Part shown: one piece after another, positions 24,470 through 28,932 of the stretch
Numbering within the stretch: the first letter of the stretch is position 1
How the letters are laid out: every line of letters starts with the position of its first letter
IMG/VR virus record: IMGVR_UViG_3300042894_007079
Coordinates: 785-64,784 of that record
Reading direction: 5' to 3' (one strand)
From: a virus
Lineage: Duplodnaviria; Caudoviricetes
Length of the DNA stretch: 64,000 nucleotides
Program-made: the position numbers and the translations under genes
The notes under the pieces: generated by a model
The model's input: the letters and a program-made list of their open reading frames with translations, nothing else
Databases searched by the model: none
Told to the model about the DNA's origin: nothing

Positions 24470-24853
24470 ATGAAACATTTAAAACAATTTGAATCTAAAA
24501 AAGAAAAGTTTCCTGATATTAAAAAAATGGAAGTAGATGGATATACTATTCAACTTGGTAGAAATGCTAAATCAAATGATTATTTAACTTTTATAGTTGC
24601 CGATGATGAAGACATTTGGATGCATGTTAAGGGTGTTCCTGGAAGCCATGTTGTTATAAGAGTTAGCGAAAACCTACCAACACAGGAAATAATAAAGTTT
24701 GCGGCTAACCTTGCTAAGAAAAATAGTAAAGCACCAAAAGACCAATCTGCAACTGTAGTTTTTTGCCAGAGAAAATATGTAAAAAAAGAAACTGGTATGA
24801 ATGATGGTCAGGTAAGAGTTGATTACGTAAATGCGGAAGAAATCAGTATTTAA
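24470..24853 (+). CDS. Stand-alone NFACT-R (DUF814) RNA-binding domain protein
   Basis: GRNAKSNDYLT, DIWMHVKGVPGSHVVI, AANLAKKNSK; MKHLKQFES leader. Confidence 0.85.
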   Translation: MKHLKQFESKKEKFPDIKKMEVDGYTIQLGRNAKSNDYLTFIVADDEDIWMHVKGVPGSHVVIRVSENLPTQEIIKFAANLAKKNSKAPKDQSATVVFCQRKYVKKETGMNDGQVRVDYVNAEEISI

Positions 24854-24869
24854 ATTTAATATATAATCT

Positions 24870-26396
24870 ATGAATTTATTAAAATATAATAAAATTTTCG
24901 AATCCGGAACTCAATCTGACCCTGGTGCTCGTGGATACACTGGTGGTGGTTACAAATCTAAAGAAGAAGTCTTTGGAAAAAAAGAAGAACCTCAATCAGT
25001 AGATAAAACTGCGAGAATTAAAATATCAAAAGAATTAGAAAAAGTACTTAAAACAATGGAAGATAATGATAGTTATCTGGCTTTTGAGATGCTTTGGTTA
25101 GGTGAACCAAGTTCAAAATATCAAAATGGTTTGGGTATTACTGATGTTACTGTATCTACTAAACCTTATTGCTTTGAAGTTACTATTACTGGAAAAAAAT
25201 ATGATATGAAAATTGGTAAGTTTTTCAGATATTATTGGCCTGGTTTACTTACAGAAGACGAAATAAAATCTTTTATTTATCAGTATAATGATATGACTTC
25301 TGATAATGTAGGCACTGACGCTACAACAACAGCTCGTAGAATTCAAGCTCCAACATTTTCATATAAACCTAAAGATGTTAAGGCTACATTCTTATCTTTA
25401 ACAACTAAAACTTACCCACATGGATATGAAGATGAGGTTCTTCAGTTTTTACCTGATTTGAAAAAAGATGAAGTAGGTAATTATTATAAAATTATTGGCG
25501 AAGGTAAACAAAAAACTATGTTTACTTGTCACTTAGACACTGCTGATAGAGACCAAAAAACAACAAAATTATTTGAATGTAATGGTCGAGTAGTGGAAGA
25601 AGGATATTCTTTTAGACTTATCAAAACTGGTACTGGTGATGAGCACATTTATACGGATGGGCATTCTATATTAGGAGCTGATGATAAAGCGGGAACTGCT
25701 GTTATGCTTTATATGATGGCTAATAATGTTCCTGGTATCTACTATTTCTTTATTGGTGAAGAAAGAGGTGGTATTGGCTCAAACGCTCTTTCTGCTATTT
25801 ATGACAAAATGGATTTTTTATCTGATGTTAAGCATTGTGTTTCTTTTGATAGAAGAAGAACTACATCTGTAATCACTCATCAATTGGGAAGACAATGTTG
25901 TTCAAATGAGTTTGGACAAGCACTTTGTGATGAGTATAACAAACACGGTTTAAATCTATCTTTAGATACAACCGGTGTTTATACTGATTCTGCTTCACTT
26001 ATGGAAGATATCGCTGAGTGTACAAATATATCAGTTGGTTATTATAATGAACACCGAGGAACTGAAATGTTAAACATAACACACTTAATTAAACTAGCTG
26101 AGGCTTCGGTCAAAGTTAATTGGTCTGATTTGCCTGTTAAAAGAAAAATTGGATATAATGAAGAGCTATTTGCTAAACACAAAACACTTATCAATGAAAT
26201 AAAGAAAAATGTGTTTGGTATTGATGTAAAAGTTGTTGGTAAAGATGATAGAATATTTATTAGTTTAGATATGGAAGAACCTGATATGAGTGAGGTTTAT
26301 GATTCTCTTATTAGAGTACAAACAATATTAAATAAGTATAAAATCGAAGATACTGGCTTATTTGAAGAAACATATTTTAAAATTGAATTAAGATAA
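24870..26396 (+). CDS. M28/M20-clan zinc peptidase with N-terminal extension
   Basis: CHLDT, LGADDKAG, GEERG, SFDRR, YTDS, VGYYNEH. Confidence 0.8.
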   Translation: MNLLKYNKIFESGTQSDPGARGYTGGGYKSKEEVFGKKEEPQSVDKTARIKISKELEKVLKTMEDNDSYLAFEMLWLGEPSSKYQNGLGITDVTVSTKPYCFEVTITGKKYDMKIGKFFRYYWPGLLTEDEIKSFIYQYNDMTSDNVGTDATTTARRIQAPTFSYKPKDVKATFLSLTTKTYPHGYEDEVLQFLPDLKKDEVGNYYKIIGEGKQKTMFTCHLDTADRDQKTTKLFECNGRVVEEGYSFRLIKTGTGDEHIYTDGHSILGADDKAGTAVMLYMMANNVPGIYYFFIGEERGGIGSNALSAIYDKMDFLSDVKHCVSFDRRRTTSVITHQLGRQCCSNEFGQALCDEYNKHGLNLSLDTTGVYTDSASLMEDIAECTNISVGYYNEHRGTEMLNITHLIKLAEASVKVNWSDLPVKRKIGYNEELFAKHKTLINEIKKNVFGIDVKVVGKDDRIFISLDMEEPDMSEVYDSLIRVQTILNKYKIEDTGLFEETYFKIELR

Positions 26397-26397
26397 A

Positions 26398-26973
26398 ATG
26401 AAAGTTAAAACATTTATAAAATATTTAGAGAATATCAGAAAAGACGACTTCAGTCATCTTAATGATGATTTATCGGCTAATAAAAAGAATGAGGGTCGTT
26501 GGCCAGATGATGACTATGATTATGGTGATGATTCTACAAAAGATTATGGTGATTATGATGATTGGTATGATGATGAAGATGAGAAGTATTATTCTGGTCG
26601 TAAATCTTCTAACCCTAAATTTGACGATGATGATAATGATGATGACTATACTTACGGTGATGATGATGGTGATGACGATGATGTTCAACATTTAACTTAC
26701 TTACTTAGACAAATGTTTAGAAATTCAGGAGTTGATAATGTCCAAATCACCGCTAAACGAAACGAAGATATTGTTATTGAAGTTTATATGGGTAAAAAAG
26801 ATACTCTTAGAAACATAATAAAAGTTTTTGAAGTTGCTAATAAACTAAAAAGAGATATATTAGCTCAATACGATGCTGAGTTTGATATATGGACTGCAAA
26901 AAATGGCGCAGGTATACTTTCATTTGGATTTACCTTAGATGAGGGATTAGATGATGATAATATACCATTTTAA
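26398..26973 (+). CDS. Asp-rich acidic protein ending DDDNIPF
   Basis: D/Y-rich tract at about aa 38-96; SSB-like C-terminus. Confidence 0.6.
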   Translation: MKVKTFIKYLENIRKDDFSHLNDDLSANKKNEGRWPDDDYDYGDDSTKDYGDYDDWYDDEDEKYYSGRKSSNPKFDDDDNDDDYTYGDDDGDDDDVQHLTYLLRQMFRNSGVDNVQITAKRNEDIVIEVYMGKKDTLRNIIKVFEVANKLKRDILAQYDAEFDIWTAKNGAGILSFGFTLDEGLDDDNIPF

Positions 26974-26982
26974 TTAAACTTT

Positions 26983-27013
26983 TTTGTATTTACAGATATT
27001 ATATATACATTTG
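26983..27013 (+). promoter_or_regulatory. Bacteroidota-type promoter for tmRNA (TTTG-N19-TACATTTG)
   Basis: Matches the -33/-7 consensus TTTG N19-21 TAnnTTTG. Confidence 0.65.
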
Positions 27014-27035
27014 TAAGATAATTACAATATACTAT

Positions 27036-27408
27036 GGGGATGTCATAGAATAGATTCATAGAGTAGTGGTAGTTATGCAGGTGTCGGATGGTCAAGTAAC
27101 CGACTAATAAATTTGGTGACAAAAAGTCGTAAATGGCAAAACAAATGAAGTAGCATCCCGTGAAGATTTAGTAGCGGCGTTACAAAACAACATGCTTAAG
27201 GCAGAAGAGCTATCTTTAGTTTAATATTTTAAGCTTTCGAAAAAATTCTCCAGCTGAATCACACAGTTAAAAATGTGAAACCAGAATTGTTAGAGTGATG
27301 GGTTGTTCAACTAACTATTTTGTAAGTTTCGAAAAACTTTCTAAGCCTGTGAATGAATAATTATTGTTAACTAGGGAAGACACGATGGGCAGTACATCGT
27401 CATCTCCA
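27036..27408 (+). ncRNA. ssrA: tmRNA (one-piece)
   Basis: 5' GGGGATG pairs with 3' CATCTCC(A), giving the G3.U alanine determinant. T-arm ACGATG/GGCAGTA/CATCGT. Tag ORF 27135-27224. CCA not encoded. Confidence 0.9.
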
Positions 27409-27417
27409 CTAAAAAAT

Positions 27418-27443
27418 TAAAGTCCACTTTGGTGGACTTTTTT
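27418..27443 (+). terminator. Terminator after tmRNA
   Basis: AAAGTCCAC-TTTG-GTGGACTTTTT. Confidence 0.85.
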
Positions 27444-27464
27444 GTTTAAATAGATATAATTTGT

Positions 27465-28001
27465 ATGAGTTATATCAATTCTTTTAAAGGTCGGTACTTT
27501 TTTCTATCTAATTTTTATCCGTGTGAAATTACACACAAAGGAATTACATATCCTTCTGTTGAACACTACTATGTTGCTTTAAAAGTTACTACGATGCAAT
27601 TTATAGATGGTGTTTATTATACAGCACCTGATTTTAGAGAGTTAATTGCTAGAATAAAAGAACCTGGTGATGTAAAAAAAATGGGAAGGCGTGTAAAGGT
27701 CAGAAGTGACTGGGATGAAAAAAGATTAGGATTTATGGAGTGGGGTATAAAAGAAAAATTCAAAAATCCTAAATTAGCTGAAATGTTAATTGAGACTGGT
27801 GATTTAGATTTGATTGAAGGTAATAATTGGCATGATGTGTGGTGGGGCCAATGTTCTTGTCCAAAATGCAAAGGTGGTGGTCACAATTATTTGGGTAAAA
27901 TTTTAATGCAAATTAGAAGTGAATTAAGACAACAAAATGCGAGACCTTCACTAGAAGAAGAAATAAAAAACAAATTAAATAAAGAAAATGGCAGTCATTA
28001 G
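27465..28001 (+). CDS. NADAR (YbiA-like) family protein
   Basis: FLSNFY, SVEHYY, KKMGR, LIEGN.WHD.WWG, NYLGKILM. Confidence 0.9.
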   Translation: MSYINSFKGRYFFLSNFYPCEITHKGITYPSVEHYYVALKVTTMQFIDGVYYTAPDFRELIARIKEPGDVKKMGRRVKVRSDWDEKRLGFMEWGIKEKFKNPKLAEMLIETGDLDLIEGNNWHDVWWGQCSCPKCKGGGHNYLGKILMQIRSELRQQNARPSLEEEIKNKLNKENGSH

Positions 28002-28932
28002 TTATTTTGGTGGTAAGAGTTCCTCCGCATTTCAAGAATTAATCAATACTAAAATTCCCAAAACAGGAATTAAAACATATTTAGAGCCTTTCTCTGGCTC
28101 AATGGGAACATATATGGACGACCCAAACTTAAAGTTTGATGTAGTTATCTATAATGATAAAAATCGTCACCAGGTGAACTTATACAAGTGCGCATCGGAG
28201 CCTGAAACTTTTCTAAAATATTTAGAAAGATTAAAAGAAACTTTACTAAAGACTGATGAGACAGATCCGCTAAAAAAGTGGGACTTTTATAAGAAAATTT
28301 ACAAAAAATATCAAAAGAATAACTTTCTTGATGATATGAATTTTGAAATTGGTGATTTTGGAAAAGCAGCAATCTATGCTTTTCTTATTACATCAGCTCA
28401 TAATTCAGTTTATCCAAGAGGTGCTGGTTTTAATGGTTACAAAAAAGATAAAGACCGTCTTAAATTAGAAGTCCTTATTGATAAATTAAAAAAGAATAAA
28501 TATACGCCTAAATTAAAATCAATTACTGATTTTTTAAACATTGATTTTGAAGAACTTATCAATAGATATGACGCTGAAGATACTTATCTTTATTTAGATC
28601 CACCATATGCTAGATTTAATGAAGATAAAGGTGAAGATGATGCTAAAAGACTTTTCTGGTATGGTGCTGATACTGAAGGTGTTTTTGGACCAGCTTCGCA
28701 CAGAAGACTTTTGGAGCTATTAAAAAATACAAAATGTCGTTGGTCTTTATCATATTATTATTTTCCTTTACTGGAAGAGTTATTACCTAAAGATAAATAC
28801 GTTTGGACTGAGAAAGAAGTATTTAGAAGCTCGGCACATGGTGGAAATAACTCTGATTTAAAAACAGAACAAGCTAAAGGAGTTGAATTGTTAATTATGA
28901 ATTATAATCCAAAAACTGGTGAAAAGTTATAA
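27988..28932 (+). CDS. DNA adenine methyltransferase (Dam/D12-like)
   Basis: YFGGKS, LEPFSGS, YND, YLDPPY, ELLIMNY. Confidence 0.85.
   Translation: MAVISYFGGKSSSAFQELINTKIPKTGIKTYLEPFSGSMGTYMDDPNLKFDVVIYNDKNRHQVNLYKCASEPETFLKYLERLKETLLKTDETDPLKKWDFYKKIYKKYQKNNFLDDMNFEIGDFGKAAIYAFLITSAHNSVYPRGAGFNGYKKDKDRLKLEVLIDKLKKNKYTPKLKSITDFLNIDFEELINRYDAEDTYLYLDPPYARFNEDKGEDDAKRLFWYGADTEGVFGPASHRRLLELLKNTKCRWSLSYYYFPLLEELLPKDKYVWTEKEVFRSSAHGGNNSDLKTEQAKGVELLIMNYNPKTGEKL

Follow-up and report, generated by a model that had tools for sequence, protein, structure and literature searches.

A phage tmRNA gene with a rebuilt T-arm and a long tag reading frame, overlooked by standard tools, in relatives of ~640-kb phages

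The tmRNA gene and its homologs

The DNA analysed here, hereafter the window, is a 64,000-nucleotide stretch of a 64.8-kb virus fragment (IMG/VR record IMGVR_UViG_3300042894_007079) that encodes a T4-type portal, a Gp23-type major capsid protein, an RNase R/II-type exoribonuclease, a NADAR protein and a Dam methylase. Directly upstream of the NADAR gene lies an element that a preliminary description, made from the letters alone, had taken for the gene of a phage transfer-messenger RNA (tmRNA, ssrA) with an unusually long tag (Table 1). That identification is almost certainly right: the element aligns with the Rfam model RF00023 over its full length, it has 21 full-length homologs, its stems covary, and the G3:U70 wobble pair that gives a tmRNA its alanine identity is present in 21/21 sequences. 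The automatic confirmation that had been proposed failed, with ARAGORN reporting 0 genes in the window and Rfam 0 matches at gathering thresholds; it was a permissive Rfam scan of positions 26700-27800 that recovered the full-length match (model positions 1-374, at 27036-27411), with 18.6 bits (E 2.9e-5) where the RF00023 gathering score is 47 bits.

Table 1. Features of the tmRNA locus and of neighbouring genes, in window coordinates
Feature	Position	Strand	Remarks
tmRNA (ssrA) gene, one-piece	27036..27411	+	G1 to discriminator A 27408, then genomic CTA in place of CCA
Acceptor stem, 5' strand GGGGAUG	27036..27042	+	pairs with 27401-27407; contains G3 of G3:U70
Acceptor stem, 3' strand CAUCUCC, and discriminator A 27408	27401..27408	+	
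Helix 2, 5' strand	27055..27082	+	pairs with 27345-27377
Putative pseudoknot 1	27084..27120	+	hairpin UCGG/CCGA 27084-27087/27100-27103; loop GUCA 27091-27094 to UGAC 27117-27120
Frame-setting U-A	27130..27131	+	equivalent of E. coli U85-A86; 4 nt before resume codon
Tag reading frame	27135..27224	+	GGC 27135-27137, 29 codons, TAA 27222-27224
Hairpin within tag frame	27150..27183	+	stem 27150-27161/27174-27183; conserved 12-nt loop GAAGAUUUAGUA
Remodelled T-arm	27382..27400	+	6-bp stem ACGAUG/CAUCGU; 7-nt loop GGCAGUA 27388-27394
Intrinsic terminator-like hairpin (9 bp) and T tract	27419..27447	+	3' of tmRNA
NADAR-domain protein	27465-28001	+	PF08719, E 2e-25; directly downstream of tmRNA
D12-class adenine methyltransferase	27988-28932	+	14-nt overlap with NADAR gene
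Very acidic 191-aa protein, family-less	26398-26973	+	with the peptidase, between NFACT-R gene and tmRNA
Phage peptidase, 508 aa, MH-clan-like metallopeptidase	24870..26396	+	phrog_4191, E 9e-66; weak tripeptidase/peptidase T/TET1 matches
NFACT-R stand-alone protein, 127 aa, GSHV motif	24470..24853	+	PF05670, E 1.5e-13
RNase R/II-type 3'-5' exoribonuclease, 625 aa	18037..19914	-	RNB (E 7e-111), CSD2, S1, OB_RNB

Homologs were collected by using the downstream NADAR protein as a search query, which led to 15 loci, and by scanning viral contigs with a conserved 3' motif, which led to 30 loci, with a homolog found by BLAST in 30/30. Together with two phage records and the window itself, these loci collapse to 22 distinct sequences, 21 of them full-length (~68-98% identity) and one a deletion variant. 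The two records, LR745206.1 and LR756502.1, are the closest in the phage collection: uncultured phages of 634,780 and 642,428 bp with ~72% identity to the window. They presumably stem from the study of Al-Shayeb et al. 2020, whose text describes a 'Mahaphage' clade with genomes >634 kb and predicted Bacteroidetes hosts (PMC7162821). DNA near-identical to the window is present in lake-water and freshwater metagenomes.

In its general architecture the predicted RNA resembles E. coli SsrA and the RF00023 consensus, with a G3:U70 acceptor stem and a discriminator A, a long helix 2, a putative first pseudoknot (PK1) before the tag, a U-A that precedes the resume codon by four nucleotides, a tag stop codon in a hairpin region, further helices downstream, and a T-arm stacked on the acceptor stem. 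We counted base pairs ourselves on a G-INS-i alignment of the 21 full-length sequences (~400 columns), in place of a full-length covariance model. The 7 pairs of the acceptor stem are 100% paired, with compensatory changes at 2 of them (variants GGGGAUG/CAUCUCC, GGGGCUG/CAGCUCC and GGGGGCG/CGCCUCC). Helix 2 comprises 25 pairs, of which 97% of cells are paired and 8 show compensatory changes, against 33-49% when the partner strand is slid, and the 6 pairs of the T stem are 93% paired with 5 compensatory; controls in which the 3' partner was shifted by 1-2 columns gave 15-73% pairing. RNAalifold, run on the first ten sequences, predicted 66 pairs, 20 with compensatory changes. The PK1 hairpin UCGG/CCGA is invariant in 21/21, and in every sequence its loop is complementary over 4-7 bp to a segment 9-13 nt downstream (GUCA/UGAC, GUCA/UGGC, UGAUAUC/GGUAUCA or UUUGAUA/UAUCAAA), a register set by eye and without a shuffle control. 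Of the structures 3' of the tag, one hairpin covaries (3/6 pairs). A terminator scan found 2 terminator-like sites, which are the hairpin at 27419-27447 on either strand; shuffled sequence gave an expectation of 0.1.

The elbow of the molecule is where it departs from canonical tmRNAs. The canonical UUCRANY-type T-loop on a 5-bp stem (UUCGAAU-type in the usual case) is absent from the window, which has instead the loop GGCAGUA on a 6-bp stem; that stem covaries, and the change is a deviation in a conserved feature with the arm itself retained. T-loops of this GCAG/GCGG type occur in 15/21 variants (six spellings, with GCGG in the locus L001), whereas the other 6/21, which branch more deeply, carry 6-nt loops reading UUCGAA, UUCGUC or UUCAUC. 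The D-loop region of the window lacks the GG of the Rfam consensus, the usual contact of the T-loop. CCA is encoded in only 2/21 variants, the window having CTA in its place, and may be added post-transcriptionally. The remodelled T-arm and the gene end in CTA instead of CCA likely explain why both ARAGORN and Rfam pass over the gene.

Tag reading frame and tag peptide

The preliminary description had placed the resume codon at the GGC that follows TAAAT (27135), and the frame so opened proves to be conserved. Frame 0 is open in 22/22 distinct sequences, for 27-30 codons, while both alternative frames contain stops within 19 codons in 78/78 pairwise comparisons among 13 representatives, and the length changes within the frame (-6, -6 and +3 nt) are all multiples of 3. 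The dinucleotide U95-A96 is invariant in 21/21, with the resume nucleotide G100 four positions past the A. In E. coli, A86 is described as the ruler that fixes the frame four nucleotides downstream (PMC2481249). The invariant U95-A96, the position of G100 and the E. coli ruler together give a product consisting of Ala and GKTNEVASREDLVAALQNNMLKAEELSLV, and we regard the frame at 27135 as very likely the true tag frame.

Compared with E. coli, the window has a Gly resume codon, 29 codons instead of 10, the ending -LSLV instead of -ALAA, and an additional conserved hairpin within the frame. A tag about three times the usual length that does not end in -LAA had been noted from the start, and the comparison with related phages that had been proposed extends the observation: tags of 27-30 codons, all 21 ending in A (11) or V (10), with the terminal residues LSLV, LAVV, PELV, PATV, LETV, LETA, LVEA, LVIA, LVVA, LAVA, VAVA, LEVA, FEMA, VATA or AVLA. 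As 0/21 end in AA, the Leu-Ala-Ala or Ala-Ala end of an ssrA-type ClpXP degron is absent from the family; in kind, a small hydrophobic residue, the C-terminus is canonical. All six variants with a UUC-type T-loop have tags ending in A; that the -V ending is the derived state is suggested, for a family that is unrooted.

How unusual this makes the tag is a matter of comparison. Published tag lengths span 8-35 residues (PMC8012679), and mycobacteriophage Bxz1 (cluster C) has a tag, ATDTDATVTDAEIEAFFAEEAAALV followed by a stop, that is likewise long (25 residues), acidic and ends -ALV by ARAGORN. Thus the length and atypical ending called unusual are real, yet neither is unprecedented. The tmRNA of Bacillus phage G, also phage-encoded, has a 13-residue tag ending -QVA (ARAGORN). 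Both phage tmRNAs, which are listed by Hudson et al. 2014 (PMC4131195), differ from that of the window in that ARAGORN finds them and their Rfam scores pass (73.9 and 67.6 bits for Bxz1 and phage G); their tags are unrelated to the window's in sequence, and their hosts are Actinobacteria and Bacillus. Our literature searches returned no functional study of any phage tmRNA tag, and in the passages that they returned tmRNAs of jumbo phages, megaphages and mycobacteriophages are mentioned at the level of annotation.

The middle of the tag, EV..EDLV.AL(Q/R)NN, is much more conserved than its C-terminus, the opposite of what is seen in canonical tags. This segment coincides with the hairpin inside the frame, whose 9 pairs are 95% paired with 5 compensatory and whose loop GAAGAUUUAGUA is invariant even at third codon positions. 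The substitutions R9-to-K and A14-to-F occur together, as matching halves of compensatory changes in that stem. The internal 'LVAA' that had been pointed out is not a conserved peptide feature: its first Ala (residue 14) alternates with F and S among the homologs, and its second with S and C. A large share of the additional codons makes up this conserved hairpin, and RNA structure probably accounts for the length of the tag no less than peptide function does. A host tmRNA with the same tag, which would have refuted the preliminary description, did not come to light: a motif scan of 185,579 species-representative genomes, with a pattern that is degenerate yet strict, returned four protein-coding open reading frames and 0 tmRNAs. 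Three of the four resemble LuxR-type regulators, by a reading of their sequences.

Partner proteins and RNA libraries

If the tmRNA functions, it should have an SmpB to work with, and related phages encode one. Of 10 related records, 6 carry an intact smpB (PF01668, 164-183 bits, free of stops), among them 4/4 near-complete ones. The protein aligns end to end with solved SmpBs (E 2.8e-36), and the six copies that were aligned have the hinge GKK-x-(Y/F/W)-DKR and the basic C-terminal tail of the canonical system. The top 120 matches in an SmpB search are all close relatives from the phage lineage, with at least 88% identity, and so give no clue to a donor or host. The SmpBs that accompany the two classes of T-loop differ by a central-loop indel of 1-2 residues, which is not decisive. 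That huge phages carry tmRNAs and SmpB is stated by Al-Shayeb et al. 2020 (PMC7162821).

Other proteins that could serve such a system are also encoded. RNase R, the nuclease recruited to tmRNA-rescued ribosomes (PMC8012679), is found in 4/6 relatives (4/4 of the near-complete ones, and syntenic in three). A protein of the CCA-adding-enzyme family occurs in 3/6, ClpS in 5/6, and ClpP homologs, 2-3 copies each, in 4/5. Relatives also carry a ~710-residue two-ring Hsp100 of ClpA/B/C type, with too few residues before D1 for a full N-domain and with a GVGF loop that we take, by analogy with ClpC, to be the ClpP-docking loop. No Lon (0/5), S41 protease, SspB or true ClpX was found in the relatives searched. 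Alanyl-tRNA synthetase is essentially absent (a 292-aa fragment in 1/6 relatives only), which fits charging by the host enzyme via the invariant G3:U70. Two of the genomes have a divergent ClpP-like gene at a distance of 2-3 kb from smpB, and in one of them (G001) a thioredoxin gene separates the two. The Clp set and the CCA-adding family are both carried by the complete relatives LR745206.1, LR756502.1, G001 and G005.

The gene is also represented in RNA libraries. Six metatranscriptome runs matched about 1/3 of the words sampled from a stretch of 661 bases with the gene at its centre, and RNA contigs from four runs in four studies cover 27066-27402, 27031-27413, 27053-27376 and 26974-27413. 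Three of the four stop short of flanking coding sequence within the compared stretch; the contig from run X18, from a related strain, continues upstream into DNA unlike that of the window. The variants seen in the contigs keep the tag frame, with no indel in 27135-27224, and two of their substitutions match the locus L049. The pattern, read from contigs of RNA libraries, fits a discrete, abundant and stable RNA. In run X17 a 413-nt contig is circularly permuted, with 27413 (5 nt beyond the discriminator) joined directly to 27031 (5 nt ahead of G1); this could reflect a circularised or concatenated precursor RNA, or an artefact of library preparation or assembly.

New relative to the literature is a family of tmRNAs with a rebuilt T-arm, overlooked by standard tools, that supplies the missing partner of smpB in the largest phages. 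The RF00023 scan of the two ~640-kb genomes revealed no second full-length canonical tmRNA; its other matches there are fragments of at most ~90 nt that resemble tRNA genes or are the size of a T-arm. As long as both usual tmRNA finders miss the family, the smpB genes of ~640-kb phages seem to lack a partner, and any tally of phage tmRNAs made with ARAGORN is too low. Al-Shayeb et al. 2020 state that ARAGORN was used to assign tmRNAs (PMC7162821), and since it detects none of the window's family the family was probably not counted there. A covariance model of the 21 full-length members would recover it. Few parts of a tmRNA are as conserved as the T-loop, and its replacement here, on a covarying stem and in an RNA present in libraries, offers a natural test of which features of the elbow matter to RNase P, the CCA-adding enzyme, EF-Tu and SmpB.

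Proposed function and alternatives

We consider it likely that the window, from a lineage of very large phages found in lake water and akin to the ~640-kb 'Mahaphage' genomes, encodes a functional one-piece tmRNA that works with the SmpB of the phage itself. In the mechanism we propose, a nucleotidyltransferase, which most near-complete relatives encode, would add the missing CCA, and the host alanyl-tRNA synthetase would charge the molecule by way of G3:U70. The tmRNA-SmpB complex would then enter stalled ribosomes and translation would resume at the GGC at 27135, so that the nascent chain would gain Ala and 29 residues, a 30-residue tail with a small hydrophobic end (-LSLV here); tagged chains would end ...AGKTNEVASREDLVAALQNNMLKAEELSLV. 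On balance we lean slightly towards this tail being a C-terminal degron for Clp-type AAA+ proteases, whether those of the host or a ClpC-like unfoldase and ClpP encoded by the phage. Such proteolysis would probably be weaker than for an -LAA tag, with release of the ribosome as the main benefit. The preliminary description had suggested that rescued products might go to a different protease or be spared from degradation, a hypothesis that our computations neither support nor exclude.

Several observations weigh against a functional rescue system of this kind. No smpB was found for the window's own phage, whose record is a 64.8-kb fragment. Detection by standard tools fails throughout the family, with 0/20 relatives reaching the Rfam gathering score (46.8 bits at best) and no tmRNA reported by ARAGORN in any of the loci of nine tmRNA-bearing relatives that were scanned. 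With a T-loop outside the U54-U55-C56 type and a D-loop without GG, the acceptance of the elbow by RNase P, the CCA-adding enzyme, EF-Tu and SmpB is, on sequence grounds, an assumption. The RNA contigs show genomic letters past the discriminator, and contigs are silent on RNA ends, on strand and on CCA addition. Selection at the peptide level appears only moderate, a weak signal (pN/pS 0.53 over the first 19 codons, with 12, 12 and 15 variable columns at the three codon positions), and because the conserved core of the tag doubles as an RNA hairpin its conservation alone is no proof of peptide function. Given the dominance of Ala-Ala in E. coli, -LSLV may by analogy be a poor ClpX signal. Lastly, on a 75.7-kb viral contig (L035, 571-982, minus strand) there is a copy that has 99.7% identity with the window across tmRNA positions 87-376 and from which the first ~86 nt have been deleted, including the 5' acceptor strand, the 5' strand of helix 2 and PK1; promoter-proximal DNA is joined directly to AAAAGTCGTAAAT, and the missing part was not found elsewhere on that contig. 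Either this is a knockout that arose in nature or the contig was misassembled, and the loss of 86 nt may mean that the tmRNA gene is dispensable.

The alternative that survives best accepts the tmRNA and its frame and differs on what the tag does. It holds that the tag is private, a phage-specific signal that diverts rescued chains from host ClpXP to a phage Clp machine or to no protease at all, with the remodelled elbow and the phage SmpB rendering the system partly orthogonal to that of the host. The tag of the window does not end in Ala-Ala, the end that dominates strong ClpXP degrons in E. coli, where it is reported for 91% of the top 100 strong C-terminal degrons (PMC10862746), and it is the middle of the tag, far more than the C-terminus, that is conserved, with a motif that occurs in no sampled cellular tmRNA. 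The relatives have a suitable set of Clp proteins (ClpP, the Hsp100 with its GVGF loop, and ClpS) and lack the other proteases and adaptors sought, and the divergent ClpP-like gene stands near smpB. There is also a precedent for a change of protease: Mycoplasma pneumoniae has a tag of 27 residues, close to the length of the window's, that is degraded mainly by Lon, the extra length accompanying the switch in protease specificity (PMC8403727). Mycoplasmas, however, lack ClpXP and use Lon, whereas the window's relatives lack Lon and have Clp components, and the tags are dissimilar. Other points count against a private tag. The conserved middle is at least partly explained by the RNA hairpin with its invariant loop; every tag ends in a small hydrophobic residue, and ClpX is reported to accept LVA, with a change of the terminal A to S raising KM about eightfold (PMC10862746); the phage ClpP homologs may act in head maturation; and in LR745206.1 the Clp genes are far from the tmRNA gene (~424 kb vs 205 kb). 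We therefore regard a private tag as doubtful, and continue to favour a functional tmRNA whose tag is read, if weakly, by Clp-type proteases.

It is tempting to extend the idea to a self-contained and partly orthogonal pathway of rescue and disposal in the largest phages, in which a tmRNA with a rebuilt elbow prefers the phage's SmpB and CCA-adding enzyme and its 30-residue tag is read poorly by host ClpXP and either read or ignored by the phage's ClpC-like unfoldase (without an N-domain), ClpP and ClpS. We think this improbable, if rather less so than the alternatives discussed below. Were it true, it would be the phage and not the host that decides the fate of proteins from stalled ribosomes, and RNase R and the NFACT-R protein encoded upstream of the tmRNA, as a release factor, would belong to the same set of tools. 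With a long tag, SmpB, RNase R, NFACT-R and Clp proteins in one lineage, a takeover of protein quality control by huge phages becomes testable.

A further alternative denies that the long frame is the tag at all. Translation might resume one base later, at GCA 27136, to give AKQMK and a stop, a reading that the preliminary description had named as one that would overturn its own; GCA (Ala) is the commonest resume codon generally. A97 is invariant too, so that a ruler set one base later would select this +1 frame, which a TAG closes in nine of the ten sequences first compared. That TAG, however, arises incidentally from the conserved GAA-GUA-G: in L014, on the same record as L040, GUG replaces GUA, the TAG is lost and the +1 frame runs for 11 codons, so the short reading is not conserved. 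Frame 0, by contrast, is the one kept open, with its stop position conserved and its indels in multiples of 3, and the U-A stands exactly 5 and 4 nt ahead of GGC, as in E. coli. Alternatively, the RNA might be a tagless, tRNA-like decoy for SmpB: phage tmRNAs consisting only of the tRNA-like domain (TLD) are on record (PMC4131195), and a decoy that titrates SmpB has been proposed for mycobacteriophage DS6A. Both the full mRNA-like domain, whose helices covary, and the presence of a phage SmpB speak against a mere decoy. We judge it very improbable that either version is correct, and retain the frame at 27135 as that of the tag.

Least probable of all, to the point of being negligible, is that the gene is a decaying or host-derived ssrA fragment, left at an integration site (tmRNA genes commonly serve as such) or brought in by mis-binning, and drifting as a pseudogene: the sub-threshold Rfam score and the ARAGORN miss, the truncated L035 copy and the 'provirus' label that two related contigs carry in IMG/VR would fit it, but the gene sits between phage capsid-module genes (portal, Gp23-like, peptidase) and NADAR/Dam, its position is kept in the complete 634-642 kb phage genomes, it is present in RNA libraries, and compensatory changes in four helices together with a frame kept down to ~68% identity indicate purifying selection.

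Among the neighbouring genes listed in Table 1, the one for the stand-alone NFACT-R protein may also bear on ribosome rescue. A homolog lies ~2-2.6 kb upstream of the tmRNA gene, on the same strand, in 5/6 relatives searched, the copy in G001 having 41% identity. Jlp2, which is tied to NFACT-R by a search, is reported to free peptides from peptidyl-tRNA in a manner that requires a conserved histidine (10.1101/2025.09.04.673968), and by analogy the NFACT-R gene of the window may encode a second ribosome-rescue factor.

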